From a plasmid, in the sequence record NZ_CP123987.1: a stretch of 64,000 bases of DNA. One strand, written 5' to 3'. Shown piece after piece: positions 5,722-57,035 of this stretch. Numbering within the stretch: the stretch's first letter is position 1; each line of letters opens with the position of its first letter. The position numbers and the translations under genes were made by a program. The notes beneath the pieces are model-generated. The model did no database searches, was not told where the DNA came from, and saw only the letters and a list, made by a program, of their open reading frames with translations.

Positions 5722-6567
5722 CTAGCTTGGTTGTTGATCCAAAGTATTAATGCCTGGATACCAATCTTTATATCCTTGATATCTATCTACTTCTAGCAGT
5801 TTTTCAGCATTTTTTACTCTTTCTGGCGTAGGAGGCTCAACACCTTCAAGACGATATCTGATACCCATTTCCTGATACTTATGAACGCCCATTGTATGAT
5901 AAGGTAATACTTCAAATTTTTCGACATTATGAAGATTTTCCTTAACATACTCGCCCAATTGTTTCAAGTATTCATCATTATCCGTGATGCCTGGGATAAG
6001 GACATGACGAATCCAAACAGGTTTCCCTATACTAGAAAGATATTCGCACATATCCAAAATATTATCATTTGGGAATCCGGTTAATCTCTTATGTTCGTCC
6101 GAATTAATATGCTTGATATCAACTAATAAAATGTCGGTATAGTCCATTAACTCATTGAACTTACTAAACCAAGGTTCTCTTCTTGTAAATGGCTGTCCAC
6201 AAGTGTCCAAACAAGTGCTAATACCTTCTTCCTTGCACATCTTGAATAACTCTAGTGCAAAATCTATTTGCAATAGAATTTCACCACCTGATAAAGTTAT
6301 TCCACCTTTGTCGCCCCAAAAGCTGCGATAAGGAAGTGCCTTGTTTAGAACTTCTTCAGTCGTCATTTGTGAACCTACCCTTGTTTTCCAAGTGTCCGGA
6401 TTGTGACAGAACTTACACCTCATATGGCAACCTTGCATAAAAGCGACAAAACGTATACCTGGTCCATCAACAGCTCCAAAAGTTTCCAAAGAGTGTACAT
6501 ATCCTACGACATGACCGTCTTTAGTTGGAACTGGATTCAATAAAGGATTAGCACTCATTCTCTCCAC
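5722..6567 (-). CDS. pflA: pyruvate formate-lyase activating enzyme (radical SAM)
   Basis: 'CHMRCKFCHN' CxxxCxxC radical-SAM motif; immediately downstream of pflB. Confidence 0.9.
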   Translation of the reverse strand: MERMSANPLLNPVPTKDGHVVGYVHSLETFGAVDGPGIRFVAFMQGCHMRCKFCHNPDTWKTRVGSQMTTEEVLNKALPYRSFWGDKGGITLSGGEILLQIDFALELFKMCKEEGISTCLDTCGQPFTRREPWFSKFNELMDYTDILLVDIKHINSDEHKRLTGFPNDNILDMCEYLSSIGKPVWIRHVLIPGITDNDEYLKQLGEYVKENLHNVEKFEVLPYHTMGVHKYQEMGIRYRLEGVEPPTPERVKNAEKLLEVDRYQGYKDWYPGINTLDQQPS

Positions 6568-15294: not shown

Positions 15295-16929
15295 CTATTT
15301 AATATAAGCGTATTTGTAGTTCCATTGTGTACCTGCAGTATTTTGAATAATACCCTTTACTTTGGTATTTTGCATATAAGATGTTGTTTGTTGATATAGA
15401 GGTGTTACCCCTTGATCAGCATTAAAGAGTCGAGCAGCTTTAACTAAATCTTCCCAACGTTTATTAGCATCATTGGCATCTTCATTTTGTGCTTTTTCAA
15501 TTAAAGCATCGTACTCTTTATTAGAGTACTTTCCATAATTGTATGAAGTTCCTGTAACTGGAATTTGCATGAAAGTGATTGGATCTTTAAAGTCTCCACT
15601 CCAACCAGATACATAAATGTCATAGTTACCTTTACGAGCTTTAGATAATGCGCTATTTCCAGGAATATTTTGTACGGAAACCTTAATTCCTGGCAATACC
15701 TTTGTATATTGTGATTGTAGATATTGAGTTAAAGCATCATTATTAGCCATTTCATTGGAAGCTAGAATTGTGAAATTCAAATTCTTTTCACCAATTTCTT
15801 GTAATCCTTTTTTCCAATATTCTCTAGCTAATTTCTCATTGTAATCAACTGTATTATCTACTTTTTGTTCTGCAGCGAAATCTTTACCTGTTTTTGGATT
15901 AGTAGCTAAATCAGATGCTACAAAACCAGTTGGTACATTAGATCCATCGCCGAAAACTTTCTTTGTAAGTGTCTTTCTGTCAATCGCTAATGATAAAGCT
16001 AATCTAATATTTTTATTATTTAGTGCCTTACGATTTACTTCATTAGAATCATTAAAGTTATAGTCTAAATATGCAACGTAAGAATAAGAGTATTGCTTGA
16101 ATTCTGGCTTGTTATGTAGATTCTTAACTTGTTCACTAGATAATGGTGTTAAATCTAACTTACCTTGTTGGAATAATTGATAACCTGTATTGGTATTTTT
16201 AACTACTTGATAGTTAATCTTTTGTAGTTTTACCACTTTTTTATCCCAATATTGATTATTCTTTACAAATGACCACTTATCCGAAGTACCATTCCAGTCT
16301 TTAACTTTAAATGGTCCTGAGTACACCATGTATTTAGAATTAGTTCCATATTTCTTACCATACTTTTGTACCACTTTTTCACTTTGTGGTCCAAATAATG
16401 GATATGTCATTAAGACTTTAAAATATGATATAGGTCTATCTAACGTAATAACAACCTTATTATCACCTTCAGCCTTTATTCCTAATTTATCAGCTGACAT
16501 TTTACCTTCATTGATAGCTTGGGCATTCTTTACATCATAGAACAAATAAGCATATGGTGAAGCTGTCTTAGGATCAATTGTTCTTTTCCAAGAATATACA
16601 AAATCTTGAGCAGTAATCTTATCTCCATTACTCCACTTTGCATCTCTCAAAGTAAAAGTCCATGTTTTGCCATCTTGTGAAACTTGACCACTTTTAGCTA
16701 ATCCAGGAGTTACCTTGCCATCTTTACCTAAACGATAAAAACTTTCAAAAACATTCCCAGTTTGACCATAACCTGTAGACTTAGAAATATCAATGGTATC
16801 CAATGGTCCAGTTGTACTTAGATTTAAAACTTGTTTAGAATTTTCACCAGTTGATTTACCACATGCAACTAACAAAATTGCGGTTAAGCTTATAAATATT
16901 CCAGTAATAATTGCTTTAATTCTTTTCAT
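15295..16929 (-). CDS. oppA: peptide/oligopeptide ABC transporter substrate-binding lipoprotein (OppA-like)
   Basis: 544 aa; signal peptide with lipobox 'LVACGK'; family-5 SBP size and composition. Confidence 0.8.
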   Translation of the reverse strand: MKRIKAIITGIFISLTAILLVACGKSTGENSKQVLNLSTTGPLDTIDISKSTGYGQTGNVFESFYRLGKDGKVTPGLAKSGQVSQDGKTWTFTLRDAKWSNGDKITAQDFVYSWKRTIDPKTASPYAYLFYDVKNAQAINEGKMSADKLGIKAEGDNKVVITLDRPISYFKVLMTYPLFGPQSEKVVQKYGKKYGTNSKYMVYSGPFKVKDWNGTSDKWSFVKNNQYWDKKVVKLQKINYQVVKNTNTGYQLFQQGKLDLTPLSSEQVKNLHNKPEFKQYSYSYVAYLDYNFNDSNEVNRKALNNKNIRLALSLAIDRKTLTKKVFGDGSNVPTGFVASDLATNPKTGKDFAAEQKVDNTVDYNEKLAREYWKKGLQEIGEKNLNFTILASNEMANNDALTQYLQSQYTKVLPGIKVSVQNIPGNSALSKARKGNYDIYVSGWSGDFKDPITFMQIPVTGTSYNYGKYSNKEYDALIEKAQNEDANDANKRWEDLVKAARLFNADQGVTPLYQQTTSYMQNTKVKGIIQNTAGTQWNYKYAYIK

Positions 16930-17115
16930 CTTTATTTTCCCCTTTATGTAAAATATGTTTTTTAATCTATAAACAGTTCATCATCCATCCTTCCAAATAA
17001 ACAAAAAGGACTTGCAACTCCAAAAAATTAGAATCGCAAGTCCAGTTATTATTATCTCATATAATCTAACTGATTAAATTAATCTGCATCGGTACCGATA
17101 ATAAATATATACAGT

Positions 17116-17226
17116 TTAATCCAATCTTGGAAGTGTGAATCTAATTTTCTGCATGCCAAAACCCATGTTTCCTACTGGACAACATGTTACCAAACAACAG
17201 CATTGTGTATTGATAAAGTTTGACAT
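17116..17226 (-). CDS. small Cys-rich peptide, 36 aa: MSNFINTQCCCLVTCCPVGNMGFGMQKIRFTLPRLD
   Basis: Hand-translated; absent from the ORF track because it is under 60 aa. Strong RBS GAGGAG 8 nt upstream of ATG. An inverted repeat pairs the RBS region with the 3' end of the ORF. Confidence 0.35.
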   Translation of the reverse strand: MSNFINTQCCCLVTCCPVGNMGFGMQKIRFTLPRLD

Positions 17227-17337
17227 AGTGATTCACACTCCTCTCATTTCTTTAACCAAATCATATAACCTTACTATACTTTTGTCAATAAATTTTAATT
17301 ATAAGTTTGTATTTTCTAATTTTTGGTAAAAATAATA

Positions 17338-17526
17338 TTACTTATTTAATAAACTCTCTAATTCAGCTAAATTGCTTGCTCGTTCTAATTTAGAATCATT
17401 TAAATCATCTATCATCTCTAAGATAGAATAATTTATCCTAGAAGAAGGGGCCCTCCAATCTAATCTACGCACAACTAAAGCTTTTTTAGATTCTATCTTA
17501 ATCTTATTAACTCTACTTTTTTTCAT
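17338..17526 (-). CDS. hypothetical small protein (62 aa)
   Basis: ORF track only. Confidence 0.2.
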   Translation of the reverse strand: MKKSRVNKIKIESKKALVVRRLDWRAPSSRINYSILEMIDDLNDSKLERASNLAELESLLNK

Positions 17527-17643
17527 AATACATCACTTTCCATAAAAGTATACATCCTATTTGTCGACCAAATTTCTAATCGCTCTATTTATACTGTCAG
17601 AAATATCTTCATCACGAAGTTCAGAATATAAATATAATTTTTC

Positions 17644-17910
17644 TTACAAATCTGGTTCTAAGTTAATTACAATGTTCTGCTTGTAAGGTTTTTCAGGAGT
17701 CATATTGTGATTTTTGCAACACTCAAAATAATCATCAATTGTATCTTCAAAATCATCTTTCAATTCTTGTAATGTATTTCCTTCATAGGATAATAAACTT
17801 CTAATCCCCAAAACTTCGCCATGTAAAATATTATCCTCTAAAGAATACTCTATTGTTCCTTTGTAACCTCTATAGCTCATGACTTCTTGCATTTTTATGT
17901 TTCCTTTCAA
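17644..17910 (-). CDS. HicB-like antitoxin-domain protein (88 aa)
   Basis: 'MSYRGYKGTIEYSLEDNILHGEVLGIRSLLSYEGNTLQELKDDFEDTIDDYFE' resembles the HicB N-terminal domain. Confidence 0.45.
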   Translation of the reverse strand: MKGNIKMQEVMSYRGYKGTIEYSLEDNILHGEVLGIRSLLSYEGNTLQELKDDFEDTIDDYFECCKNHNMTPEKPYKQNIVINLEPDL

Positions 17911-17913
17911 TTA

Positions 17914-18195
17914 TTATCTATTTAACTGTATAGTCCAAGTTAAATTGAATAAAAAAACAACATCCCCGTCAACAACGAGGATGTCTTCGATTGTGGTATG
18001 TAGAACCTTACTGAGAATGACTAAGTTATCCAAACTAGGTAGTGATCTACCAGATAACCATTTATAAATGGATTGTGGGTTCTCAAATCCCATAACTGAT
18101 TGAATATCACGTACACTGTACCCATTATTTTTGAATAAACTTTTTAGATTAGCACCAGTTTTTTCTGAATTTATCGAAACATACATTGGCTTCAT
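17914..18195 (-). CDS. XRE-type HTH DNA-binding protein (93 aa)
   Basis: 'YSVRDIQSVMGFENPQSIYKWLSGRSLPSLDNLVILSKVL' HTH pattern; lies immediately upstream of the HicB-like ORF. Confidence 0.4.
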   Translation of the reverse strand: MKPMYVSINSEKTGANLKSLFKNNGYSVRDIQSVMGFENPQSIYKWLSGRSLPSLDNLVILSKVLHTTIEDILVVDGDVVFLFNLTWTIQLNR

Positions 18196-18850
18196 GAAAT
18201 CACCTCAATTTAATTATACATACCTCGAACATTTAATACCAAAAATAGCCAACGCAAAATTTGCATTGACTAAAAATTATGTAAACCGACGCGTATTGGC
18301 TTACGTGGGATACTCTTGTATCTGGACTTATTAGACTACTGAATCAGACTAGCACATCATGGCTAGCAACTTCCATGACCTAGTCCGCATTTCAAGTTCA
18401 GGGCATAGACCTTTTCCTATCCAATTTTCACCAAACATGTGCAATGTTCCAGTTAATGTAATATTGTCGATTTTGGCTACTCAAACCTTACTCGTCAGTT
18501 ATAGCTGTGTCACCACAACTTCACGACACGAATTCTTAGTTGATATTCTTCTTTGGTTCCTAAGGTAATCAGCCTTAATTAACTGAAGATGGCATATTGC
18601 GAATCCCTGACGGCAAGTGTCTTAGTTTCAGATATGAGTCCCCTTGCTTCTCTCTACACAACTTTTTTTCGTTGCTCCCAATTAGTACATTAGAAAAAAT
18701 AAACGTATCCGTATATTTCGTCATAGTAGTTATTAAGAGACGTATGGCTAGGCGGCTTGTCACACCTCATCCACTAGCTTCATCGGTACACTTATATACT
18801 AACAAAGCTTAGGTCATTAAACTATAAACTGTTAGGTTAATTTGGGCGAT

Positions 18851-18935
18851 TTCGACATAGGACCAATTTCTTAATTTATGCAAAATAAACTTTGATATCG
18901 CTTTATTTGCATAAATTTTAGAATTTCTCCTGTGT
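18851..18935. repeat. palindromic intergenic element, copy A (partial): 'ataggaccaatt..aatttatgcaaaataaa..tttatttgcataaatt'
   Basis: Shares the 'ataggaccaatt' plus 'atttatgcaaa/tttgcataaat' palindrome with copy B at 59862-59957. Confidence 0.5.
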
Positions 18936-18972
18936 CTAATATTCAAAATTAGCTTTTCATCACCCCAAAATA

Positions 18973-19626
18973 TCAGTCTATTCTTTCTAATTCTATACTT
19001 CTAAAGATGAAATAATCTAAAATTGTTAATATCAAAATCCACATTGCACTAAAATAAAGTTTACTATTATCTGCATGAATCAAATAGTTAATAGGCCATG
19101 CTACGAAACACCAATAGGCTGACATTAAAGTTTTATTACTAGCAAAAATAATAAATAAAATCTCTACTAATGAAAATACTAAATTTATATATTTATTAGT
19201 AACCATATATAAAAACATGTGACTATGATTAAGTAATACTATCAATAGCCACATTGCTATTCCGCTGATTATCCCTAATTTAACTTGGGCTATGGAATAA
19301 CTTATTATCCACCATACAAAAAATGAAATCCACCATAATAATAAGTCTAAGATTAACGTTTTTATTGTAAGTAATTTCACTTGACTATACTTACGAACTT
19401 CTTGAAAATTATTTGCTTCTCTTTCTTGTTCAAAGCATATATTAGTTATCACAGAAATTAAAGATGGATAAGCTAGAGCAAATGCCAGTACAATATTTTT
19501 ATAAGTTAGTAAATTTCGATGCCAATACAAATACCCGTAGGCTGATGCAATTTCAAAAATAGTGAAACTTACTAATAGGTATATAGTAGGACTACTTTTT
19601 AATTTTAATAATTCACTTCTAATCAT
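18973..19626 (-). CDS. lanG: lantibiotic immunity ABC transporter permease, NisG-like
   Basis: 217 aa polytopic membrane protein; last gene of an F-E-G triplet. Confidence 0.6.
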   Translation of the reverse strand: MIRSELLKLKSSPTIYLLVSFTIFEIASAYGYLYWHRNLLTYKNIVLAFALAYPSLISVITNICFEQEREANNFQEVRKYSQVKLLTIKTLILDLLLWWISFFVWWIISYSIAQVKLGIISGIAMWLLIVLLNHSHMFLYMVTNKYINLVFSLVEILFIIFASNKTLMSAYWCFVAWPINYLIHADNSKLYFSAMWILILTILDYFIFRSIELERID

Positions 19627-20335
19627 TTGATTTACCCCATCTTGTAAAATATATTAAAAGTAAAGATATCAATAATGAAAGTAATACAGGACTCATAACA
19701 TCAAAAAGTTGTAAATTTATAATTTTAAAAATTCCTGAGGGCTGTACCCCTAATAGATACTGTGATATTTTATAATGGTACGAGTATGGAAATGCAAACC
19801 ACCATTGTGTTTGAGAAATGATAGATCCAAATAATAAACATACTAACGTATTAACTGCTATAAGCAAATAGCCATTTATAAAATTAGCTAAAAAATATAA
19901 CCACGGTATATTCCAAAATACAGATAACAATAACAGAAATATACTTAGTATACTTTTACTTAGTAATAATTCTGTATAACCACTAAAAAACTTATTTAAG
20001 ACAATTACTAGTATTATAAAAAAAAGACTTGATATTGCAACTCGTACAAAGATTAAGAAAATTTTTGCCAAATAAATTTGGAAACTCCACAAATTATACT
20101 TAACATTTTGAAAGTTTCCTGCTTTTTTCTCCATATTAAAATCCATTAAAAATAATAATCCTATTAGTAGGTATAAAAAAACAGATTCCCACCAATATAT
20201 GGCAAAAGGAGAAAAAATAATTACTCCCCCTACTAAAAAAGCAATTAAACCCGTTAATAAAGGGATGATCCATAAAAGTTTGTTTATTCTAACTTTTTTT
20301 AATTTCAATATTTCAGAAAACAAAGCTTTTATCAT
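19619..20335 (-). CDS. lanE: lantibiotic immunity ABC transporter permease, NisE-like
   Basis: 238 aa polytopic membrane protein; overlaps lanF and lanG by 4-8 nt. Confidence 0.6.
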   Translation of the reverse strand: MIKALFSEILKLKKVRINKLLWIIPLLTGLIAFLVGGVIIFSPFAIYWWESVFLYLLIGLLFLMDFNMEKKAGNFQNVKYNLWSFQIYLAKIFLIFVRVAISSLFFIILVIVLNKFFSGYTELLLSKSILSIFLLLLSVFWNIPWLYFLANFINGYLLIAVNTLVCLLFGSIISQTQWWFAFPYSYHYKISQYLLGVQPSGIFKIINLQLFDVMSPVLLSLLISLLLIYFTRWGKSND

Positions 20336-21024
20336 ATGAAACTCTCTCCCTTCATAACATTAAAGAAAATCTCTTCAATATCTTTATAATTACTTTGAAT
20401 TTTATCATATACAACATGTCCTTTATCTAAAATGATAACTTGATCGACGATTCTTCCAATTTCATGTAGCTGGTGACTTGATATCAAAATAGTTACACCT
20501 TGTTTTTTTAATGACTTTAGTAAATCTAAAAATTCAATAACCCCATCAGGATCTAATCCGTTAATTGGTTCATCGAGAATTATAAATTTAGGTTGTGTTA
20601 AAATAGCCATTCCGATCCCCAATCTTTGTTTCATGCCAACTGAAAATTTACCTGCATGTTTTTTATCCGTGCTATCTAAACCAACTCTTTTTAAAACATC
20701 TTTAATTTGATTATTTGGAATATCATATAAAAGTGCTTTAGTTTTTAAATTATCAAAAGCTGATAAATTCGAATAAATTGGTGGTTGTTCAATCAAAGCA
20801 CCAATGTTACTAGTTTTTCCGTGACCTTCAAATAGTACTTGTCCTTTATCTGGTATTTCAATCCCATAAATAATTTTCATTAAAGTTGATTTTCCAACAC
20901 CATTCATCCCAAATAAACCACAAATAGTACCTTTTTCAATCGTAAAGCTTACATCCTTTAATACTTCTCTATCCTGGTATTTCTTAGAAATATTTTTCAC
21001 TTCAATTTTCATCTTATATATCAC
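20332..21024 (-). CDS. lanF: lantibiotic immunity ABC transporter ATP-binding protein, NisF-like
   Basis: Walker A 'GMNGVGKST'; signature 'FSVGMKQR'; Walker B 'ILDEP'. Confidence 0.8.
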   Translation of the reverse strand: MIYKMKIEVKNISKKYQDREVLKDVSFTIEKGTICGLFGMNGVGKSTLMKIIYGIEIPDKGQVLFEGHGKTSNIGALIEQPPIYSNLSAFDNLKTKALLYDIPNNQIKDVLKRVGLDSTDKKHAGKFSVGMKQRLGIGMAILTQPKFIILDEPINGLDPDGVIEFLDLLKSLKKQGVTILISSHQLHEIGRIVDQVIILDKGHVVYDKIQSNYKDIEEIFFNVMKGESFI

Positions 21025-21075
21025 CTTATCTTTAATTATTCGGTAATAGTATAAGTAATTAAATTCATAATTAGA

Positions 21076-22242
21076 TCAGAATTTCTGGATTCCTAACTTT
21101 ACACTCACCCCATCATTTACTAGATTTGTAATTATCATGGTACCACCATGTCTGACTGCAACCGCTTGTGCAAAAGATAGTCCAATTCCATAATGCTTTC
21201 CACTACGGCCTTTATCTTCAGTAAAAAATAACTTTTGCGCATTAACTTGTGCTTCTTCTGAAAATGGTGCCCCATTATTCCATATTTCAAACCATAAAAA
21301 TTTTAAATCTTCAGTTACAGTAACCGATACTTGGGGATTACTTTTATCCGCATACTGACACGCATTAAGAAAAATGTTGATTAGTGCTCGTTTTAGAGCT
21401 GGAACATTAGCATGAAATTTCTTTAAATTAGTTTTTACCTTTAATCGATTATTCGTTTTGTTGACTATGGCAATATCTGTTAGTTCAAGAAAAAGTTCTT
21501 TAATAAATTCATTTAAATTTATTTCTTCGCTTATTGAATTTAAATTTAGTAACTTAGTATAATTAATCATTGTATTAAAATAATTTTCTAAAGTTTGAAT
21601 ACTGTTTTTCATAGATTCCATAAATTCTAATTGTCTCTTATCAGGATTAGTCAGTTCCAACAACTCTATATTTCCTTTTAATACAGTAAGTGGTGTTTTT
21701 ATATCATGAGATAATGCTGCTACCTGAAATGATAAATCTTCTTTTTCTATCCGTTCAGTCTCAATTAAAGTTGATAACTCATTACTTTTTTGATAGAGTT
21801 GCTTTAATACAGTATCAAATTCTTTAATTTTCGACTTAGGATAATCTTTAGTAACCTTATTCCCCATATTTAAAGCAATCTTTTGAATAGCTGTAAAATT
21901 TTTTGAAATCTCATGAATTAGTTTATAAATTGCAATAATGATTATTAATGATTCGTATATAATCAAAAATATATATGATATTTGATTATACGAAAACTTT
22001 CTCAAGACTGGATTAGTAAATTCCGGAACACTATTTTGTCTAATCACTAAGCTATATAACTTATTAGAAGATATAGTATAACTTGTAGTCCCATTTATAT
22101 AACTTTTATTCTTTACTTTAGCTAAGTAGTAATTATCTTTATCATTTTTTTGATATCTACTTGCTACAATTTTTCCTGTTCTCCTATCGAATACAATAAA
22201 GTCATAAGGATATTTTTTCATCGTTTGCCTAATATCCGTCAA
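21076..22242 (-). CDS. lanK: NisK-like sensor histidine kinase, apparently lacking the N-terminal TM1 segment
   Basis: H-box 'LSHDIKTPLTVLKGNIELL'; G-boxes 'GRSGKHYGIGLSFAQ'. Opens with a hydrophilic sensor-domain-like stretch 'MKKYPYDFIVFD...' before a single TM. Only TTG or an internal ATG is available as start. Confidence 0.75.
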   Translation of the reverse strand: MTDIRQTMKKYPYDFIVFDRRTGKIVASRYQKNDKDNYYLAKVKNKSYINGTTSYTISSNKLYSLVIRQNSVPEFTNPVLRKFSYNQISYIFLIIYESLIIIIAIYKLIHEISKNFTAIQKIALNMGNKVTKDYPKSKIKEFDTVLKQLYQKSNELSTLIETERIEKEDLSFQVAALSHDIKTPLTVLKGNIELLELTNPDKRQLEFMESMKNSIQTLENYFNTMINYTKLLNLNSISEEINLNEFIKELFLELTDIAIVNKTNNRLKVKTNLKKFHANVPALKRALINIFLNACQYADKSNPQVSVTVTEDLKFLWFEIWNNGAPFSEEAQVNAQKLFFTEDKGRSGKHYGIGLSFAQAVAVRHGGTMIITNLVNDGVSVKLGIQKF

Positions 22243-22265
22243 AGTAGTTTTATTAGAATCTAATA

Positions 22266-22895
22266 CTAAATAAACTTTATTCGGATTTGATATATATATT
22301 CGGAAATAGATCCAAATAAAGTTTCTGCATATTCGTCATATACATTATTATAAATGTCTTCACGACTATAAATATGAGAAGTCCTTCGTGAGAGCAATTC
22401 TAAAATATCATATTCACGACTAGTCAAAGGAATATCTTGACTATTAACGCATACCCTTCGTTCTTCCAAATAAAAAGTTATTTTCCCCATATCACGCTTA
22501 ACTTCTGCGAAATCCCGAACTGCTTGACGACTACGTTCTTCTCGTTTAATATTTGCATCAATTTTAGCTAATAACTGTTTCAAACTAAAAGGTTTGGTTA
22601 TATAATCATCACCACCAATTTTTAAACCATATAAAATATCTTCTTCATCATCTTTAGCACTTATAAAAATAATTGGCGTTGAAATCTTAGAACGAATCTG
22701 ATAACAAATTTCAGTTCCTGATATCTTTGACATCATAATATCTAATAAAATTAAATTAAAACCCTCAAAATCTGATAATTTTAACGGAACATGAACATTT
22801 TGGCAAGTTACAACCTCATAATTTTTCATTTCTAATGCTGTTTTCATAAGTTTTAAAATTTCTACATCATCATCTATAACTAAGATTCTATACAT
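22266..22895 (-). CDS. lanR: NisR-like OmpR-family response regulator, C-terminal wing apparently truncated
   Basis: Receiver 'VIDDD...LLDIMM' with conserved D/K; wHTH region ends at '...EYIYQIRIKFI*' with no following '...TVRGVGY' wing. Confidence 0.75.
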   Translation of the reverse strand: MYRILVIDDDVEILKLMKTALEMKNYEVVTCQNVHVPLKLSDFEGFNLILLDIMMSKISGTEICYQIRSKISTPIIFISAKDDEEDILYGLKIGGDDYITKPFSLKQLLAKIDANIKREERSRQAVRDFAEVKRDMGKITFYLEERRVCVNSQDIPLTSREYDILELLSRRTSHIYSREDIYNNVYDEYAETLFGSISEYIYQIRIKFI

Positions 22896-22931
22896 ACGTC
22901 CTCTTCCTTATAATAATTTTTATAACTACAG

Positions 22932-24152
22932 TTAAAAATCATCAAATAACATTAATGATTTCATCCATTGCGTTTTCCCTTTATTTGAAAAACACTCATT
23001 TAAAGTTAAAATAATACCCGTTGTTCCCTCAAGAAAGCCTAAATTTCGAATATCTTTGTCAAAAATACTTTCTATTTCATCAGTATAGTTATTTATAAAT
23101 GTATCAAATTTTCTCGTTTTTGTAAGTTTCCTAAATAAAATGCATATCGAAACTATCCCTGACTTGCCATGACAAATCATGTTGGAATCTACATTCCGCA
23201 TTTCCTTAGTAGCTCTATATAGTATTTCTATTGCTTTTTTTATAAGGTATGAATTATCTTGAATTAGTCCAATATATAAATATAAAACACTTATTCCTGG
23301 ACTACCGTAACACCATGCGTCTCTTATAAATAAATCATTATCTTTTAAAATTGTTCTATTATTAACCAATTCATTATAATCTATTCCATCTTTCCAATGA
23401 AATTTATTCTTATCAACTAATTCAAATTTTTCATAAATCTGAATAATCCTTTCTAATCCGTGTAATATTTCCTTTTTCATAAAGCCCTTTTTATACGCAT
23501 AAGCCAATACACTTCCTACACCAGCAAGTCCATGTGACATACCTGTATTTAGACAACCATTAGGATAAATTTCGTTTTCTGCCTCTGACATTTGGTTACC
23601 TGTTTTAATATACATCGCTATCAATGAATCATTATCATCTAATAAGGTTAATAAAAAAATAATAATTTTTGTCACTAATTTGATATCTATATTATCTATT
23701 AAAAGCAGATACATGAGAATTCCTGATAATCCTTCAATCACATCATAATTAGGTGGAGTAACATTTCCAATATTAAACTCTCCAATTTCTTTGTCTACAT
23801 AATAACTAATGTAATCATTTAGACTTGCAATTAAATTTTGAAATCTCAAATCTTTTTTGAGTGGTAATAAACTTAATGCAATCCCAGCTGCACCTGAATA
23901 TAGAGAACCTGTTAAAAGTCCATATTTTGATAACTTTCCATATAAATAGTCACAATACTAATCAATTTTGGACTTATATGTCCTATCTAAATCTTCCATC
24001 TCTAATAACAGTAAAATAACCCCTGGTAATCCCGAAGAAAGCGTGAATTCTTCGAAATTGTATCGATAAGCATTCTGTTCAATTCTCCTGTCCCATTCTA
24101 ATATCACTCTGCCAAATTTATTTTTTAAAATTTTTCTTTTTATTTCTTCCAT
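22932..24152 (-). pseudogene. lanC: LanC/NisC-like lanthionine cyclase interrupted by an in-frame TAG at 23958-23960
   Basis: ORF-track pieces 23958..24152 and 22932..23849 are in the same frame (24152-23849=303). The stretch between them translates to 'YCDYLYGKLSKYGLLTGSLYSGAAGIALSLL', continuous with NisC-like sequence. 'CHGKSG' Zn-ligand motif is present. 407 codons in total. Confidence 0.75.
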
Positions 24153-25938
24153 ATTTTTCTGCCCAATATAGTTCTTGATAGAAACTACAATCTTTTAAAA
24201 GTTCTTCATGAGTTCCAATACCTACTACTCTTCCTTTATTCATAACAATTATTTTTGATGCCTTACGAGCTACATTTAAATCATGTGAGATAAAAATAGA
24301 TATATTATCTTTGGATAGATTTACAAAATAATCAAATATTTCTTTTTCTGAAATTGGATCTAGCGCTGCACTTGGTTCATCTAATATATATACAGAAGCA
24401 TTTTTAAAAAAAGCTCTAGCCAAAGCTATTTTTTGCCACTGACCACCTGATAATTGCCTCCCATTTTGGAACCAAGTTCCTAATTGTAAATTTAAATTAT
24501 ATTCTCCATTCTCTTTTAAAAAATTTAACCTTAATTTATCCATAATATGTATAATCTTATTATCATCCCACTTCTCTGCAATATTACCAAGACCAATATT
24601 TTCCCTTAAAGTTAGCTCATATTTAACAAAATCTTGGAATAATATCGATATATTCTTTTGATAAAAATCTGTCGATATATGCTTATCTTCAATACCGTTA
24701 TAATATATATGACCTTTAGATGGTGTGTATAACTCTGAGATTAACTTTACTAGAGTACTTTTACCAGATCCATTTTCCCCTATTATCGCAATTAGTTCCC
24801 CTGTATGCATAGAAAAGTTTATTTTTTCTAAAGCATTGACAGAAGAGTTAGGATACTTATATTCAACATCTATTAGATCTATCCTTTTTATTCTGTTCTC
24901 ATCACCTATCCCTATGTTTTCACGATAATCACTTTGATTTTCTATTTTCAAAAAATTAAGTAATTGCTCCATAAACAAACTAGTATTATAAATAATATAA
25001 ATATTTTGTATGATTGTTTGTGAATAGCCATTTATCTTTGTAATTGCTTGCATAAGACTAACTAAATTTCCTATTAATATTCTTCCAGCTTGTACAGATA
25101 CTATAATAGTGCATATAACAAAAATATTGATAAAGTCTAATAAAATTTGAAGTCCCGAATTAAAATATGCTTTCTTTCTAGCAATAAGCAAATCTTGTAA
25201 TATAAAATCTTTTTTTAATTTCTTATACTCTTCCACAAAATAATCACTTAAATTATTTAATTTAATTTCCTTAAAAGAAAAGTCATGTGTCAATAAATAA
25301 ACTATATACCACGACTTTCTTTCTGCACTCGCTCTTTTCCATTGTATTAAAAATTCAAGTTGACCTACTTTTAAAAATATAATTAAAGATAACATAGGAG
25401 TTACTAATAACAGCAATCCTATCCATATGTTCCACGCCGCAACAAAAATCAAACTAGTCAGTAAAGATATAAAAGCAGCCAGCATAGTAATAACAGCATT
25501 AAAAAGTTGAAATGGTTTATACGTACTATCCTGTGTTATTTTCTCAATAAGATTATACATATCTGATTGTTCATAATCTGTCAACTTTAAGGAGGTTGTT
25601 TTTTTTATCAATTTTAAATTAATATTGTAAGAAAGCCACATATTAAATTTTCCGTTTATATAATTTTCTAATTGAGATAATATTACCGTAAATATTTGTA
25701 GTATTAAAAAATAAATAATATTATATACAAGCTGCATTCCTCGACTAAATATACTATTGATCAGATTTTGATAAACTATTAAATTTAATAGCGGAATTAA
25801 TGCCGTTACTATATTTAAGCACATTAAGTATGTTGCATATTTTCTTTCTAATTGAAAAATTAACTTAATCGTATCTGGAAGTGTTAATAATGTCTTAAAA
25901 AAATTTTTTGATGTTAGTTTTTTTATTTCATCCATCAT
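24118..25938 (-). CDS. lanT: NisT-like lantibiotic export ABC transporter (no C39 peptidase domain)
   Basis: 606 aa; six N-terminal TM segments then Walker A 'GENGSGKST', 'LSGGQWQK', 'ILDEP'. Start ATG overlaps the lanB stop (TAATG). Confidence 0.85.
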   Translation of the reverse strand: MMDEIKKLTSKNFFKTLLTLPDTIKLIFQLERKYATYLMCLNIVTALIPLLNLIVYQNLINSIFSRGMQLVYNIIYFLILQIFTVILSQLENYINGKFNMWLSYNINLKLIKKTTSLKLTDYEQSDMYNLIEKITQDSTYKPFQLFNAVITMLAAFISLLTSLIFVAAWNIWIGLLLLVTPMLSLIIFLKVGQLEFLIQWKRASAERKSWYIVYLLTHDFSFKEIKLNNLSDYFVEEYKKLKKDFILQDLLIARKKAYFNSGLQILLDFINIFVICTIIVSVQAGRILIGNLVSLMQAITKINGYSQTIIQNIYIIYNTSLFMEQLLNFLKIENQSDYRENIGIGDENRIKRIDLIDVEYKYPNSSVNALEKINFSMHTGELIAIIGENGSGKSTLVKLISELYTPSKGHIYYNGIEDKHISTDFYQKNISILFQDFVKYELTLRENIGLGNIAEKWDDNKIIHIMDKLRLNFLKENGEYNLNLQLGTWFQNGRQLSGGQWQKIALARAFFKNASVYILDEPSAALDPISEKEIFDYFVNLSKDNISIFISHDLNVARKASKIIVMNKGRVVGIGTHEELLKDCSFYQELYWAEKYGRNKKKNFKK

Positions 25939-28898
25939 TATTTCCCTTTCAAAATATATTTTTCAGACATAATCATTTTTTTTACAATAAAATACAGATT
26001 TTGTTCCCTAACCCTATTAATTCCAAATAACCTATTATTATGTACATGTATAATACTATCCATAATAGTGTCAGCATTTTTTTTATCAATTATTAATTTT
26101 AGTTTTTTAATCTCTTCCTTAAGTCTATTAAAGTTGTATTTGTCAATCTCATATATGTCAGTTAACTGATTAAATACTACACTTTTATAGTATTGTATTT
26201 TAGACCTTACATTTTTATCTACCTTATTGGGACAGACTTTATCTAGAAAACATAAAATGTCTTCATTTGTTTTATAAAATATTTTTAAATAAAAATAAAT
26301 CATTGCAACTGCAATATCATCAAGTTTATCTTCCATGTTCTTTTCTTTTATAAATTTCAAATACTTTATTACAAGTTTAGAATCTTCACAGAAAATATTT
26401 TCAGCTATATCTATTGCATTAACTCCTCCATATCTCTCAATTTCGCGATCATATGTAGAAATATCAAAAGTCGATAAAATACCATTTCTATGACCTTGCT
26501 CCAAATCTTTTTTAATAACTTCATATATTTTATATAAATTATTACCACTTATCCTTATCCTTATTTGTGGTACTGGATCCATATAACGTAAGAAAAATAG
26601 TTTTCCGTCTAATTTTTCTACCTTTTTTTGAATCAGAGGTATGTAAACTCGTATAAACTCTTCTTGTCTCCTAGTCGACATATACACTTTTAGATATAAC
26701 CAATCATTGAATGGCAATTTCTCTCGAACATGTTTGGAGATTCTCTGTTGTTTTTCCTTGTTTACTTTTTTAACATCGAATTTACTATTAATAACTGGAA
26801 CCACTATCTCTGATATTTTTCCTTCACTATCTTTATATATCATGTCTTTATTATTAAAATATTCTTGTATAATGGCATGACCATTCTTTTCTATATTTCT
26901 TTTTATTTCTGACATAAACAGTTCAACATCAAGTGAATTTTTACGATTAATATATAGTTTGTTATCACCGTCAACAATATAAATTTCATTCGGTATATTT
27001 CTCTGCTTTATAATCGACTCTATTGCTATATTACTTAATTCAAATTTAAATATTCTCCATGTCTTAGGACTGACTACTATATCCTCAAACATAATTCGTG
27101 GAATAAAATTCATATCTTTATAGATTAAATCCCATGGTACATATCCAAAATTATTATTTATTGAAATTTCACATAAAAATCTTAGTTCATTACTAAATAA
27201 TGTCTTGTTATACATGCTTGTTACATAAAACTTCATTTTTTCTTGAGTAGACACATCATACGCATAAAAATTTTCATTTTCATCTAATCCAATATAAATA
27301 TTAGTTAGCCTTACTTCAGATTGATCAGTACTTGAGAAAATAGGAAGAACTTTTTCTCTTACAAAAGATGTTCGCATTATATTAGCGTGTCGTATATTTT
27401 CAGGAAGAAAAACTATTTCACAAGACGTCACCCCTTCTTCAATATTTGCAGCTTTCACTTGTTTAAGTGTCTTCATGTGATAATCCCTTAATTTATCTGA
27501 TAATAATGAGAACCTTCCAGAGGATCCCCCTATATTATTACTGCCTATAATATTGCTTAATGCTAAAGTTTTCTTCTTATTAATTTGGACCATATGAAAA
27601 AATAATTCTATTCCTTGTATTGAGGTACTTTCTTTGGAATTCAGATTTCTATAATAATTAGAAAAGCATTTCAAATTAATTTCCTCTCTATTTAATAAAG
27701 CTTCTATATATTTATTAATATACATTTCTTTTTCATCATGGGAATAATATGACGTTGGAGGCTCTAATTCAAAAACTTCATTCTGAGGATGCGTATAATC
27801 ATACGGTGCGCCAATTCCTTTTATTGGATCAAATAGTTCTATTAACTGCACATCTTGATCAATACCATATTTTTCAATGAATTTATCTTTATAGTCATCA
27901 AAATAAGTCCTAGTTACTGATTTAACAGTATTAGTTATAAAATTTGAAAATTTCTCTATTCTTTGTTTATTACTATTATCAATATATATATTCCCATCAT
28001 TATATAAATCTACTTGAATATAATTATCACTTTTATTAAGTCTAGCCATTTGGTGATATATTTCAATTAATTTATCAGAACCCGAACCTATTTCAATATG
28101 TGTATATTCTTCAATTAACTCTTGTATCTTTGTTAATATTTCTACATATTTTTTACTAACATCTATTTCCCTAACTTTCATTATGAAGTCTGACATAGAA
28201 AAATTAATTAGTATATTTTCTTGTAAATTTGATATTAGATAATGATTCTCTACTAAATCATTAATATATTCTTTTGTTAAATTTAAGTATTCATTACCAT
28301 ATATTGTTATAACCTTTTCTATGATTTCACTATATGTCTTATAAGTTTGGCTACACTCTTCTGATATAATTCGATAAACTTTAGAGTTATTAATACTAAC
28401 TTCCTCTAAATCTTGATCATTTATTGAATATAATTGCATAACACGATTTCCACTAATGTAATTTCCATTATTAGATATGAAAGATAAGTTTGATTGATAG
28501 TCCTTTTCTAATTTAAAAATTACATCTGTTAACCATTTAATATCTATAAAAACTACTTTGTGTGTTTTCCCTAATTCTTTCTTATCACCCTTAACGGTAA
28601 ATTTACCATTAGAAGTTTCACTAAATAGTCCAAAAGGAGTTGCTCGATAATAGCTCCTTTTATAATATTTATATATTGATTCAAAAAAATTTTTTTCTTT
28701 CTTTTTCTTTAGTTTTCCTGCATTATACTTTTTAAGCATTCCATACAGCTTAGGATTAGCCAATAATATTTGTTCAAGAAAAATATTATCATTTTTAATA
28801 ATTTCAATAAATTCCTTATAATTATTGAAATTTTGACTTTTTTCATATGTTTGAATTGTATTACGTATCATTACATCACTAACATTGAAATTATTCAT
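25938..28898 (-). CDS. lanB: LanB-type lantibiotic dehydratase (NisB-like)
   Basis: 986 aa; N-terminal 'FLEQILLANPKLY...KYNAGKLKKKKEK..FESIYKYYKRSYYRATPFGLFSETS' closely parallels the NisB N-terminus (R.TPFG motif); size matches NisB at about 993 aa. Confidence 0.9.
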   Translation of the reverse strand: MNNFNVSDVMIRNTIQTYEKSQNFNNYKEFIEIIKNDNIFLEQILLANPKLYGMLKKYNAGKLKKKKEKNFFESIYKYYKRSYYRATPFGLFSETSNGKFTVKGDKKELGKTHKVVFIDIKWLTDVIFKLEKDYQSNLSFISNNGNYISGNRVMQLYSINDQDLEEVSINNSKVYRIISEECSQTYKTYSEIIEKVITIYGNEYLNLTKEYINDLVENHYLISNLQENILINFSMSDFIMKVREIDVSKKYVEILTKIQELIEEYTHIEIGSGSDKLIEIYHQMARLNKSDNYIQVDLYNDGNIYIDNSNKQRIEKFSNFITNTVKSVTRTYFDDYKDKFIEKYGIDQDVQLIELFDPIKGIGAPYDYTHPQNEVFELEPPTSYYSHDEKEMYINKYIEALLNREEINLKCFSNYYRNLNSKESTSIQGIELFFHMVQINKKKTLALSNIIGSNNIGGSSGRFSLLSDKLRDYHMKTLKQVKAANIEEGVTSCEIVFLPENIRHANIMRTSFVREKVLPIFSSTDQSEVRLTNIYIGLDENENFYAYDVSTQEKMKFYVTSMYNKTLFSNELRFLCEISINNNFGYVPWDLIYKDMNFIPRIMFEDIVVSPKTWRIFKFELSNIAIESIIKQRNIPNEIYIVDGDNKLYINRKNSLDVELFMSEIKRNIEKNGHAIIQEYFNNKDMIYKDSEGKISEIVVPVINSKFDVKKVNKEKQQRISKHVREKLPFNDWLYLKVYMSTRRQEEFIRVYIPLIQKKVEKLDGKLFFLRYMDPVPQIRIRISGNNLYKIYEVIKKDLEQGHRNGILSTFDISTYDREIERYGGVNAIDIAENIFCEDSKLVIKYLKFIKEKNMEDKLDDIAVAMIYFYLKIFYKTNEDILCFLDKVCPNKVDKNVRSKIQYYKSVVFNQLTDIYEIDKYNFNRLKEEIKKLKLIIDKKNADTIMDSIIHVHNNRLFGINRVREQNLYFIVKKMIMSEKYILKGK

Positions 28899-28977
28899 TT
28901 TTTCAAGCCCCTTTCACCTATTAAAAAAATGGGATAGCAAATCATCAAATTGATCTACGCTATCCCTTACTTTCTTA

Positions 28978-29157
28978 CTATTTACTTATATGTACATGAC
29001 AACCACATGATGCAGTTTTCATTGTACATCCCATTAGTGCACCTGTTTTGCAACCTGGGGTACAAAGTGAGTAGCTTGTAATTTTAACTGAATAATTTGA
29101 ATTTGTACTTTCCTTTGATACTTTTACTAAATCCAATTTAAAATCATTAACACTCAT
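28978..29157 (-). CDS. lanA: nisin-like lantibiotic precursor, 59 aa: MSVNDFKLDLVKVSKESTNSNYSVK-ITSYSLCTPGCKTGALMGCTMKTASCGCHVHISK
   Basis: Hand-translated; absent from the ORF track. AGGAGG RBS 10 nt upstream. 'F(N/K)LDL' leader box. 34-aa core differs from my recollection of nisin A at 7 positions, with all ring-forming Ser/Thr/Cys conserved. Lies immediately upstream of lanB. Confidence 0.85.
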   Translation of the reverse strand: MSVNDFKLDLVKVSKESTNSNYSVKITSYSLCTPGCKTGALMGCTMKTASCGCHVHISK

Positions 29158-29184
29158 TTAGAAAACCTCCTAATAACCCTTTAA

Positions 29185-29245
29185 TTGTTTGTTCTAGAAC
29201 GTCACTATAATATGTTATTATTTTCAGATTTTGTTCAGAATACAT
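29185..29245 (-). promoter_or_regulatory. putative lanA promoter with a NisR-type TCT-N8-TCT direct repeat
   Basis: Minus-strand 'TCTGAACAAAATCTGA' (forward 29224-29239) sits about 13 nt upstream of a TATTAT/TATAGT -10-like box, echoing the TCT-N8-TCT operator of nisA/nisF promoters. Confidence 0.4.
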
Positions 29246-29382
29246 ATTATTTAAACTGATAATTTTAAAACCATGGAAAAATCTTTAAAATAAAAAATGC
29301 CAAAGATTAACATTTCAGCAATGTAACCTTCAGCATTTTCTTAACTTAAACTATTTTTAATTAGATTCAATTCTAATATTTT

Positions 29383-30489
29383 CTAACCTAAAAATTCAAA
29401 AACATCTTTGCGGTCATATAACTTAAATACTTTTTCAAATAAGAATTGACCGACAAGTGACGCAATAACTGGAATAACTAACCATGCTAGCAATGCTGCG
29501 ACAACGCCTAAGCCTTTTTCAATTGATGCTAATGGTCCTACTAAACCTACTAAACCAAAACCACCGGAAGCAGGAGAACCTGAAATTGACATCAAAGCTA
29601 CAGGAACTGCAGAAATTATTGCTGTAAAGAAACATGGTACTAAGATAATTGGACGTCTAAATAAGTTAGGCATCATCATCTTCATCGCACCTAAGGCAAT
29701 CGCAATTGTTACCCCTGGCTTGTTAACTTTCCATGAGTTTACTACAAGTACAAGTGTTGTTGCAGCAACTCCCATTGCAGCAGCACCAGCAGCCAAGCCG
29801 TTAACTTGGATAGCCATTGCAATCGCTACTGTTGAAATTGGAGAGATAATTAACACTGCAAAAGAGCAGGCAATTAAAATACACATTAAAACTGGTTGTA
29901 ATTCTGTAAATGTGTTAATCACATTACCAATTGCGGAAGTTATCGCTGTAACATATGGATACATATAGAATCCAATTAAGCCAGCACCTGTTCCTACTAC
30001 AATTGGTGTTAAAACAATTGCTACTGATCCAAATTTATCGCCTATCAACAGAATTAATCCAACTGCAATCGATGCTGTTAACATGGTATTAATAATATCC
30101 CCTGTTCCAGCACCTACATAGGCACCTGTTTTATTCAACGCTGGGAAGTATTTAATTACGCCAGAACCTACAAATGCGGCTCCACCAACTACGGTCATCT
30201 TCATGCCATCAAAGCCAAACTTTTGAGCAATCAATGTACCAATAATTAAAGGTGTTCCTAATTGGAAAATAATTGCTGCTTGTCCTAAATGTACGGCAAA
30301 AGGATTAGTGCCGAACATCTTGAGGATAGCGGCAAGAACAGCATTAGGAATTAAACCAACTATAATCCCGATGGCAGTACCGCCTAAAACACGATCAATG
30401 AAAACTTTGGGTGTAATCTTTGTTGTTTCCAAATTCGTCACCTTCTTTATATAAAATATACACATTATTATAAGTGAGATTGTGAGCAA
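29383..30489 (-). CDS. polytopic membrane protein, putative PTS EIIC-like sugar permease family
   Basis: 368 aa, Gly/Ala-rich with many TM helices; resembles Lactobacillus proteins annotated PTS EIIC (family assignment from memory). Confidence 0.4.
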   Translation of the reverse strand: MLTISLIIMCIFYIKKVTNLETTKITPKVFIDRVLGGTAIGIIVGLIPNAVLAAILKMFGTNPFAVHLGQAAIIFQLGTPLIIGTLIAQKFGFDGMKMTVVGGAAFVGSGVIKYFPALNKTGAYVGAGTGDIINTMLTASIAVGLILLIGDKFGSVAIVLTPIVVGTGAGLIGFYMYPYVTAITSAIGNVINTFTELQPVLMCILIACSFAVLIISPISTVAIAMAIQVNGLAAGAAAMGVAATTLVLVVNSWKVNKPGVTIAIALGAMKMMMPNLFRRPIILVPCFFTAIISAVPVALMSISGSPASGGFGLVGLVGPLASIEKGLGVVAALLAWLVIPVIASLVGQFLFEKVFKLYDRKDVFEFLG

Positions 30490-30638
30490 TGTAAATATAT
30501 TTTTCTTTAGTTTCTTTCTTTTATTAGAAAAAAACGTAAAAAATTAATTAAATTTAACACTTATATTTAAGTATTCTGTTATAATGATGATATAATATAT
30601 ATTGTAAAGGTTATCATTTATATGAGGAGGAATTTTTA

Positions 30639-31634
30639 ATGGTTTCAATCAAAATGTTTGGTGTTCGTGATGAAGAACGTCCAATGGCTGAAAACTGGGC
30701 AAAGGAACACAACGTTAAAATTGATATGACTAGTGACATCCTTACATCTGATACTATCGATGAAGTTAAGGGTTTTGACGGTCTAACTTTAATGCAAGTA
30801 GCAGAAGTTACAGATGACTTATATCCTAAATTGAAAGAATTTGGTATCAAACAAATCGCACAACGTAGTGCTGGTTATGATATGTACAATTTAGATGCTG
30901 CTAAAGAAAATGGCATTATTATTACTAATGTGCCTAGCTACTCCCCAGAATCAATTGCTGAATATACTGTAACTACAGCATTGAACTTAGTACGTAAATT
31001 CCCACTAATTGAAAAACGTGTTAAGGAACATAATTTCTCATGGGAACCTGAAATCAGAGGTCGTGTTATCGGTGACATGACAGTTGCTGTTATCGGAACT
31101 GGCCGTATTGGTTACCATGTAGCTAAAATCTTCCATGGTTTTGGTGCTAAAGTTGTCGGATATGATCTATATCCTAGTGACAAATTAGACGGTATCTTGG
31201 AATATCGTGATTCTGTAGAAGATGCAATCCGCGATGCAGACATTATTTCTTTACATATGCCTGCTTTCAAGGAAAACCACCACATGTTTAACTACGAAAT
31301 GTTCAAGAAATTCAAATCTGACGCTGTATTAGTTAACATGGCTCGTGGTGCTTTAATTGATACAGAAGATTTATTGAAAGCTTTAGATGATGGCCTTTTG
31401 GCTGGAGCTGGTCTTGACGTTTACGAACACGAAGGTCCATTAGTTCCTATTGACCTAACTGGAAAAGATATTGAAGACGAAACATTCAAGAAAGTACTTG
31501 AATCTGATAAGATTATCTACTCACCACACGTAGCATACTACACTGATGAAGCTGTTAGAAACTTAGTTGAAGGTGGCTTAAATGCTACTTTGGAAGTATT
31601 GGAAACTGGCGATGCTTCAACACGTGTAAACTAA
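30639..31634 (+). CDS. ldhD: D-lactate dehydrogenase / D-isomer-specific 2-hydroxyacid dehydrogenase
   Basis: 331 aa; NAD fold 'VAVIGTGRIGYHVAKIF'; catalytic 'MARGALID' and 'SPHVAY'; GAGGAGG RBS. Confidence 0.85.
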   Translation: MVSIKMFGVRDEERPMAENWAKEHNVKIDMTSDILTSDTIDEVKGFDGLTLMQVAEVTDDLYPKLKEFGIKQIAQRSAGYDMYNLDAAKENGIIITNVPSYSPESIAEYTVTTALNLVRKFPLIEKRVKEHNFSWEPEIRGRVIGDMTVAVIGTGRIGYHVAKIFHGFGAKVVGYDLYPSDKLDGILEYRDSVEDAIRDADIISLHMPAFKENHHMFNYEMFKKFKSDAVLVNMARGALIDTEDLLKALDDGLLAGAGLDVYEHEGPLVPIDLTGKDIEDETFKKVLESDKIIYSPHVAYYTDEAVRNLVEGGLNATLEVLETGDASTRVN

Positions 31635-31696
31635 TTAGTTTAATCCTAATAAAAGCCTCTGAGAATCCATCTCAGAGGTTTTTTGTTATATACTTA

Positions 31697-32377
31697 CTAT
31701 AAGTTATTTATATTTTTATCACCGTATAGACTTTCCCAGTCATTTCTAAAATCTGCCACAGCTTGAGAAATAGACGGCATCTTAAAAGCAGATGCTACAA
31801 TATCAGGACCAACTGTTACAGCTTGAGCACCATTACTTAATGCTTCATTTACTTGTGCTACATTATGGAAACTTGCAGCTAAAATTTTAGTATTGCTATT
31901 ATCTAAATTAATTCTTTTAGATAGATTTCTAATAACTTCAGCTGAATTAATATTTTGATTTAACATTCTATTATAGTAAGGAGCCAAGTAGTCAGCACCA
32001 ACGTTGATTGCTTGATAACCTTGAAATTCCGTATAAATTGCAGTTGCTGTTACCCTAATTCCTTCAGCCTTTAGTTTTTTCATGACTTCTAACCCATCTA
32101 AAGTAGTTGGAACTTTGATGTATACATCCTTACCTACTTCATCTACAATTTTATGAGCTTCATCTATCATTCCAGATACTGAAGGTGCCACAACTTGTAC
32201 GTGGAGTTCTCTTTCATCTTCAATGATTTCCTTTATTTTTTTAAGATGTGCGAATAAATCATCGCCTACTCCATCTTTTTTTAGAATCGTTGGATTAGAA
32301 GTTACTCCTTTAACATTTAATTTATCACAGTAATATTTAATCTTTTTCAAATCAACTGTATCTAATAAAAATTCCAT
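31697..32377 (-). CDS. fructose-6-phosphate aldolase / transaldolase-like (MipB/TalC family)
   Basis: 226 aa; 'DTVDLKKI...GVTSNPTI' N-terminus typical of FSA/TalC. Confidence 0.75.
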   Translation of the reverse strand: MEFLLDTVDLKKIKYYCDKLNVKGVTSNPTILKKDGVGDDLFAHLKKIKEIIEDERELHVQVVAPSVSGMIDEAHKIVDEVGKDVYIKVPTTLDGLEVMKKLKAEGIRVTATAIYTEFQGYQAINVGADYLAPYYNRMLNQNINSAEVIRNLSKRINLDNSNTKILAASFHNVAQVNEALSNGAQAVTVGPDIVASAFKMPSISQAVADFRNDWESLYGDKNINNL

Positions 32378-54963: not shown

Positions 54964-54976
54964 ATTAAACTACCCC

Positions 54977-56175: not shown

Positions 56176-56263
56176 AAGATAAAAAAACTATATCTACAAA
56201 AAGTATTTATAAATAAAATTAGTGTAGCTACTATATAACCAGATGTTGAATTTAAATTAACCA

Positions 56264-56380
56264 TTATTTACAAACACCAAAAAATGTGAATATACATTGC
56301 CATCTTTTAAAGCCACCCTTTTTGGTTGCTCCCCCAGCTATTTTCTGTAACTTCTTTTCTGTTAACACTTCAAACTTCAT
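56264..56380 (-). CDS. GG-leader induction-peptide precursor (38 aa): MKFEVLTEKKLQKIAGG-ATKKGGFKRWQCIFTFFGVCK
   Basis: Hand-translated; absent from the ORF track. GGAGAG RBS 8 nt upstream. Double-glycine leader followed by a cationic two-Cys mature peptide. Lies directly upstream of the kinase. Confidence 0.65.
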   Translation of the reverse strand: MKFEVLTEKKLQKIAGGATKKGGFKRWQCIFTFFGVCK

Positions 56381-56499
56381 AAAAAATCTCTCCTTTGTTA
56401 TCTTTATTACAAATATAGTTTAACATTTTTTAATCTACTTTATTCGTTTTTTATCATATTCGGTTCATTTTAATGCTTATTTGGATGAAATTCTTAAAA

Positions 56500-57018: not shown

Positions 57019-57035
57019 TTTAAATTACTCCTATA

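Follow-up and report, generated by a model that had tools for sequence, protein, structure and literature searches.

The nisin S cluster nssABTCRKFEG is known from the producer P1CEA3, in which the intact cluster measures 10,385 bp (PMC10095417), and from strain 2102-15/LS7247 of Ligilactobacillus salivarius, where it lies on plasmid pLS2102-15_1; both share with the cluster analysed here the gene order, an identical NssA and the absence of nisI and nisP, and both encode an NssR of 229 amino acids (aa), an NssK of 447 aa and an NssC of 406 aa. The nssRK pair follows directly after nssC with neither nisI nor nisP in between, unlike the arrangement in the nisin system of Lactococcus lactis. A Lactococcus lactis regulator, P0122, has 74% identity with intact NssR, and P0007, which we take to be NisK-like, has 53% identity with intact NssK. 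In NisK, two transmembrane (TM) segments enclose an extracellular domain of 109 residues that is essential for signalling in response to nisin (PMC5266694), and our definition of the NisK-type family (two TM segments, extracellular domain >100 aa) was taken from that study; intact NssK shares this architecture of two TM segments and a sensor of about 109 aa. In a comparison of megaplasmids, Sevillano et al. (Foods 2023, PMC10778751) reported that p612A of L. salivarius AR612 has deletions in nssR and nssK, and loss of the regulator genes is thus already known in outline. Here we analysed a 64,000-nucleotide stretch of plasmid record NZ_CP123987.1 (the window), which contains the nisin S cluster on its minus strand in the published order A-B-T-C-R-K-F-E-G (PMC10095417). 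The cluster is a decayed nisin S copy on an L. salivarius megaplasmid. To the published outline we add that one event of 203 bp accounts for the loss in both genes, where exactly its breakpoints lie, which 26-bp repeat served as its substrate, and in what order the events probably took place.

We put the probability at about 93% that one deletion of 203 bp, bounded by direct repeats, truncated both nssR and nssK, which should have disabled the two-component system, with a nonsense mutation in nssC (Q65*) as a second lesion. The features concerned are the following.

22266..22895, minus strand: nssR', truncated response regulator of 209 aa, an open reading frame (ORF) whose end reads ...SEYIYQIRIKFI (likewise SISEYIYQIRIKFI) before the stop
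21076..22297, minus strand: nssK', histidine kinase remnant from codon 42 on, by ORF reading
22272..22297, minus strand: deletion junction, one hybrid 26-bp repeat copy, coding strand ATATATATCAAATCCGAATAAAGTTT, by BLAST and reading of the repeat
22932..24152, minus strand: nssC (lanthionine cyclase) with a premature stop, by comparison with the intact reference allele

The locus from pLS2102-15_1 (L001) served as intact reference allele. Positions 15899-32300 of the window are 99.97% identical to pLS2102-15_1 (NZ_CP090412.1) and lack exactly 203 bp at the nssR/nssK overlap, which shortens the cluster from 10,388 bp in the reference, a length in agreement with the 10,385 bp published for P1CEA3, to 10,185 bp. 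In BLAST, the two sequences align as two blocks of 99.97% identity that have 26 bases of the window in common (22272-22297) and are shifted by 203 bp from one another in the reference, and the difference is one contiguous gap, with no filler DNA, insertion sequence (IS) remnant or other indel in nssR or nssK. A first-pass annotation, made from the sequence, had noted that the junction looks like a deletion-fusion and proposed a comparison with sister sequences; that comparison shows a defined 203-bp difference and not a chance pattern, and the annotation is essentially right. No fused regulator-kinase protein is encoded, since 203 is not a multiple of three and the remnants lie in different reading frames. 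As intact nssR and nssK overlap by 11 nt in the reference, a single deletion suffices to truncate both genes. The extent of the loss, given beforehand as the 3' end of the regulator gene and the first 40-55 codons of the kinase gene, came out as nssR codons 209-229 and nssK codons 1-41.

Two copies of a 26-bp direct repeat, with 25/26 positions identical and 18 bp exact, lie 203 bp apart in the intact allele, one at nssR codon 200 and one at nssK codon 41 (6373-6398 and 6576-6601 in L001; coding strand ATATATATCAAATCCGAA[C/T]AAAGTTT). The window retains a single copy, with nssR sequence upstream of it, nssK sequence downstream and, at the single variable position (base 22279), the T of the nssK type, and the crossover therefore fell within the 18 identical bases (22280-22297). 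When one 203-bp unit is taken out of the reference in silico, the result matches the window junction at every base. Among the direct repeats of the 16.6-kb locus, the 18-bp exact one is the longest, and none of 200 sequences simulated with a first-order Markov model contained one that long within 500 bp. Both copies are kept in every non-deleted allele retrieved, including a variant that is only 98.6% identical. The two copies are read in different frames, as EYIYQIRTKF in NssR and as GYISNPNKV in NssK, and the NssK copy is without equivalent in Lactococcus NisK, where ...QISGSETIRL stands in the alignment instead.

Deletions between short direct repeats by replication slippage are typified by the classical lacI deletion hotspots. 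The window shares with these the repeats that flank the lost segment in the parent, the one hybrid copy left behind, and a deletion length equal to the repeat spacing; compared with the lacI type, its repeat is long for its context (18 bp exact, 25/26 overall). On the strength of the flanking repeats, the one kept copy and the length equal to the spacing (203 bp), we propose that replication slippage or RecA-independent short-homology recombination between the repeats removed the 203 bp and left one hybrid copy. The deletion is an ordinary pseudogenising decay event.

The truncated regulator retains native residues 1-205, followed by IKFI (T206I, K207, F208, I209) and a stop four codons beyond the breakpoint. 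The observation that it ends in EYIYQIRIKFI, about 20 aa short and without a TVRGVGY segment, was accurate: exactly 21 residues (209-229, APFKLNPVQTIRGVGYKWYEE) are lost, residue 206 is changed (T206I) and an Ile that is not native now ends the chain. The receiver domain is intact (Pfam Response_reg, residues 4-112, E = 1e-26), and its phospho-acceptor D52 is invariant in the alignment of NisR homologues. Trans_reg_C is incomplete, with profile positions 2-56 of 77 matched in NssR' versus 2-76 in the intact protein, and NssR' ends at IRIKFI where 27 of the 27 aligned homologues run on with ...NPIKTVRGxGYKW. Aligned to the solved structures RegX3 (2oqr) and MtrA (2gwr), the missing residues fall on their C-terminal TVRGLGYK segment (...NPVHLVTVRGLGYK in RegX3). 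In the OmpR/PhoB family, the segment that follows the recognition helix forms the C-terminal β-hairpin wing. This wing segment is present in all 27 aligned NisR homologues (55-98% identity), and 118 of the 120 best listed homologues are 224-253 aa long, the other two, of 134 and 191 aa, being other truncated forms or fragments. NssR' keeps the receiver domain and the greater part of the recognition helix but has no wing, and would therefore not bind promoter boxes of the TCT-N8-TCT type; judged by its domain architecture, it should have lost DNA binding.

The kinase frame reads ...YISNPNKVYLVLDSNKTTLTDIRQTMKKYPYDFIVFD... (also RIYISNPNKVYLVLDSNKTTLTDIRQTMKKYPYDFIVFDRRTG) and continues into the NisK-like kinase up to the stop at 21076. 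Intact NssK has 447 aa in the reference, and the deletion removes residues 1-41 (MKNKIHSMKWRIWKTAFEIFIETFLGLGLLLAITFILQKAG) together with the start codon and the upstream translation-initiation region; all three annotated or possible starts of intact nssK (GTG, ATG-1 and ATG-8) lie within the 203 bp. The remnant has no native start codon. Downstream of the upstream stop (22336-22338), the only candidate starts are TTG 22242 (388 aa), without a Shine-Dalgarno sequence, and ATG 22221 (381 aa, MKKYPYD), preceded only by a weak 'tagg'. The statement that only a TTG or the Met of MKKYPYD could serve as start, with neither an ATG nor a TM segment before the sensor-like domain, thus holds on both counts, as Kyte-Doolittle hydropathy gives segments at 15-39 and 145-171 in intact NssK and at 86-112 only (TM2) in the remnant, with no hydrophobic stretch ahead of the sensor-like region. 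The NisK N-terminus given in the annotation, a TM segment followed by LSLDSD..DMKHYPYDY, is matched by the 53%-identical homologue P0007 (...LLLLGLTFFLRQIGQISGSETIRLSLDSDNLTISDIEHDMKHYPYDYIIFD). TM1 is kept in all 11 aligned NisK homologues, and likewise in the NisK homologues that cover the whole query, whose length is about 440-460 aa. The catalytic half is preserved, with intact HisKA (172-231) and HATPase_c (281-382) domains in the 388-aa ORF and a conserved H-box (...LSHDIKTPL) in the NisK alignment. We also considered whether ISNPNK in the kinase frame is the NisR wing sequence DINPIK read out of frame, and rejected this, as ISNPNK corresponds to native NssK residues 43-48. A product re-initiated at TTG 22242 or ATG 22221 would lack the cytoplasmic N-terminus as well as TM1 and would be unable to expose the sensor domain on the outside of the cell, so that, on architectural grounds, extracellular sensing should be lost. 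Unlike L. lactis NisR and NisK, the window copies lack the wing and TM1, respectively. No functional lanRK pair with a similarly short regulator C-terminus and a single-TM kinase was found among the aligned homologues, and the domain architecture supports the suggestion that the two-component system is probably crippled.

Two candidate targets of this system were read by eye in the window.

29207..29239, minus strand: putative NssR-dependent nssA promoter, TCT-N8-TCT-N13-TATTAT
21048..21080, minus strand: possible nssF promoter, TCT-N8-TAT-N13-TATACT, with one half-site imperfect

The TCT-N8-TCT layout at nssA is presumably that of L. lactis PnisA, and the assignment at nssF is a weak one. A generic scan of the window for TCT-N8-TCT followed by a -10 box gave four matches against 1.7 expected, none of them at nssA, the spacing set of the scan differing from that of nssA. 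Both promoters are likely orphaned targets of the broken two-component system, and nisin-dependent induction of nssA, and probably of nssFEG, would be lost. Independently of regulation, codon 65 of nssC is changed from CAG to TAG (stop at 23958-23960), through a G to A difference at window position 23960 relative to position 8264 of L001, in which nssC is intact (406 aa); this leaves ORFs of 64 and 305 aa. Q65* would by itself block production of mature nisin S, which is not expected to be made once the cyclase NssC is lost, and we predict a non-producer phenotype.

Some points weigh against this reading. The AlphaFold2 (AF2) model of the intact regulator, based on a 28-sequence alignment, had a mean predicted local distance difference test (pLDDT) score of 77.5, fell below 50 at residues 221-229 and left the wing unresolved; the wing was assigned from the alignments to solved structures and not from this model. 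A wingless NssR or a TM1-less NssK may have residual or constitutive activity. Slippage or short-homology recombination is the likely mechanism, and is read solely from the repeat signature. Finally, the window very probably comes from p612A or from a plasmid nearly identical to it, an identification made by matching description and not by accession. The lesions reported for p612A are exactly those of the window, including a broken abpK, but the published account speaks of deletions in the plural and gives neither breakpoints nor mechanism (PMC10778751), whereas here a single repeat-bounded deletion of 203 bp is accompanied by nssC Q65*.

The truncated 209-aa regulator was found on nine contigs. 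The eight listed all come from Logan assemblies of runs SRR26908824-38 and have the same junction; where covered, they agree with the window in the nssC stop and in the linked single-nucleotide polymorphisms (SNPs), and two of them carry one private SNP each. Since all carriers share the same SNPs, the deletion arose as one event in one lineage. The exact 51-nt junction had no matches in the GTDB species representatives and none in the JGI metagenome contigs. The nssC Q65* mutation was also found in DRR162207 (L011), which lacks the 203-bp deletion, and this suggests that the cyclase was lost first and the regulator genes were deleted later.

It is conceivable, though we think it rather improbable, that the loss was selected and not neutral, silencing of a costly bacteriocin being favoured and the 26-bp repeat acting as a recurrent deletion hotspot. 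Independent regulator lesions do occur in otherwise near-identical full clusters: L012 (6001-6691) has an extra T at nt 402 of nssR, which splits it into 134 and 94 aa, and L010 and L011 (near position 2898) have lost 1 bp from an A7 run at nt 269 of nssK, with further 1-bp losses in A7 runs of nssC and nssF in L011. Counting the window lineage, four lineages have lesions in nssR or nssK through three different mutations (window lineage, L012 and L010), as the nssK change of L011 is that of L010. The kinase gene abpK of a second bacteriocin cluster is also broken, both in the window and in related plasmids. Against selection, the 203-bp deletion is one event and not a recurrent one, and the sharing of Q65* with the deletion-free L011 fits simple decay after production had already been lost. 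Moreover, the 1-bp changes of L010 and L011 fall in A7 homopolymers, where sequencing errors may account for them, and truncated proteins served as queries in the search that yielded the defective alleles, which makes for a biased sample. The wider proposal that the nisin S locus is under recurrent selection to silence production via its regulators while keeping or rewiring immunity, with the 26-bp repeats as a built-in hotspot, is in our view a doubtful one; it would draw on these regulator lesions, on the broken abpK and on 'immunity-only' islands in which PnssA lies immediately before intact nssRKFEG. If true, the conserved repeat pair would inactivate both regulator genes in one step. The collected alleles give a hint that regulator genes are the usual first casualties when such bacteriocin loci decay.

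Much less probable is that two or more separate deletions struck nssR and nssK, or that a mobile element or end joining, instead of slippage, removed the DNA. The published wording, 'deletions in nssR and nssK' (PMC10778751), is plural and would fit separate events. Against this, the single contiguous 203-bp gap ends precisely at the two repeat copies, and neither gene has filler DNA, an IS remnant or any other indel.

A deletion bounded by repeats is also the signature expected when an assembler collapses the 26-bp repeats of a genome that is in reality intact, but we consider such an assembly or sequencing artefact very improbable. The exact repeat of 18 bp (26 bp with one mismatch) is below the usual assembly k-mers and far below read length; Logan assemblies use a k-mer of 31, longer than the repeat. 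The same junction occurs in eight runs (SRR26908824-38), each assembled on its own and two of which have private SNPs, and because these assemblies are independent the deletion is no product of assembly; p612A, too, was independently reported to have a deletion in nssR and nssK (PMC10778751). Just as improbable is that the short architecture (wingless regulator, single-TM kinase) is native and functional and that pLS2102-15_1 carries an insertion, for which it can be said only that both remnants are open reading frames, as the additional 203 bp of the reference encode exactly the ...NPVQTIRGVGYKW wing and the N-terminal TM1, both conserved in every homologue aligned, the Lactococcus proteins (74% and 53% identity) among them, no listed regulator homologue stops at the recognition helix as the 209-aa product does (224-253 aa, bar the entries of 134 and 191 aa), and the remnant kinase lacks an ATG with a good Shine-Dalgarno sequence.

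In practical terms, strains with this allele, including AR612-like human isolates, score 'nisin S positive' in genome mining (BAGEL, antiSMASH), while its carriers are predicted to be non-producers that are probably also non-inducible for immunity. This matters for the genotype-based choice of probiotic candidates, although the practical value is modest, and the exact breakpoints offer a simple marker for the polymerase chain reaction, with an amplicon 203 bp shorter. The deletion itself opens no long-standing question.

The six nss genes other than nssR, nssK and nssC are identical to those of pLS2102-15_1, and the window thus lacks the full set of nine intact genes of a functional producer locus, with nssC stopped at codon 65, nssR truncated and nssK deleted at its 5' end. 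The intact genes are located as follows.

28978..29157, minus strand: nssA, nisin S precursor, leader MSVNDFKLDLVKVSKESTNSNYSVK and core ITSYSLCTPGCKTGALMGCTMKTASCGCHVHISK
25938-28898, minus strand: nssB, same sequence as in the sister allele
24118-25938, minus strand: nssT, same sequence as in the sister allele
18973..21012, minus strand: nssFEG, immunity ABC transporter, same as in the sister allele (TIGR03740, TIGR03732)

The core encoded by nssA is the same, residue for residue, as that listed for nisin S in PMC13032696, its leader matches Table S3 of PMC10095417, and NssA was assigned to TIGR03731 (gallidermin/nisin family). A megablast search of a plasmid collection with positions 18900-29300 gave a single full-length match, L. 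salivarius 2102-15 plasmid pLS2102-15_1, in two pieces that together span 203 bases more than the query; within that collection, p612A and pMP1CEA3 both gave no match, and the intact pLS2102-15_1 was the sole plasmid to cover the cluster. The NssA match, pLS2102-15_1 as the sole covering plasmid and, in the same window, an abp118 cluster, which L. salivarius megaplasmids typically carry, together place the nisin S cluster on an L. salivarius megaplasmid.

54169-57239, minus strand: abp118 class IIb bacteriocin cluster, with abp118alpha at 57036-57239 and abpR (LytTR regulator) at 54169-54963

Within this cluster abpK, the window's second broken bacteriocin sensor kinase, is split into an N-terminal piece of 228 aa (55489-56175) and a GHKL piece of 132 aa (54977-55375), and it is broken in related plasmids too.

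A commoner 'immunity-only' variant of the nisin S locus, about 98.6% identical, was found in ENA and Logan metagenome contigs (L014-L018; positions 3440-7995 of L014). Here, nssA through nt ~993 of nssC are deleted, with approximately 104 bp of filler between the ends that partly matches short stretches of nssC, and the PnssA box TCT-N8-TCT-N13-TATTAT is kept and now lies directly upstream of intact nssRKFEG.

An Rfam scan of the window gave no match, and NCBIfam held no model specific to NisR or NisK, returning generic matches below cut-off only. The nisin S cluster (18973-29157) has a guanine-plus-cytosine content of 26.6%, versus 31.5% for the whole window, consistent with horizontal acquisition. 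Just downstream of nssG, on the minus strand at 17338-18195, are a 93-aa HTH_3 regulator and an ORF annotated in the sister plasmid as HicB-family antitoxin, and an intergenic 1-bp indel relative to pLS2102-15_1 is located at position 18663.

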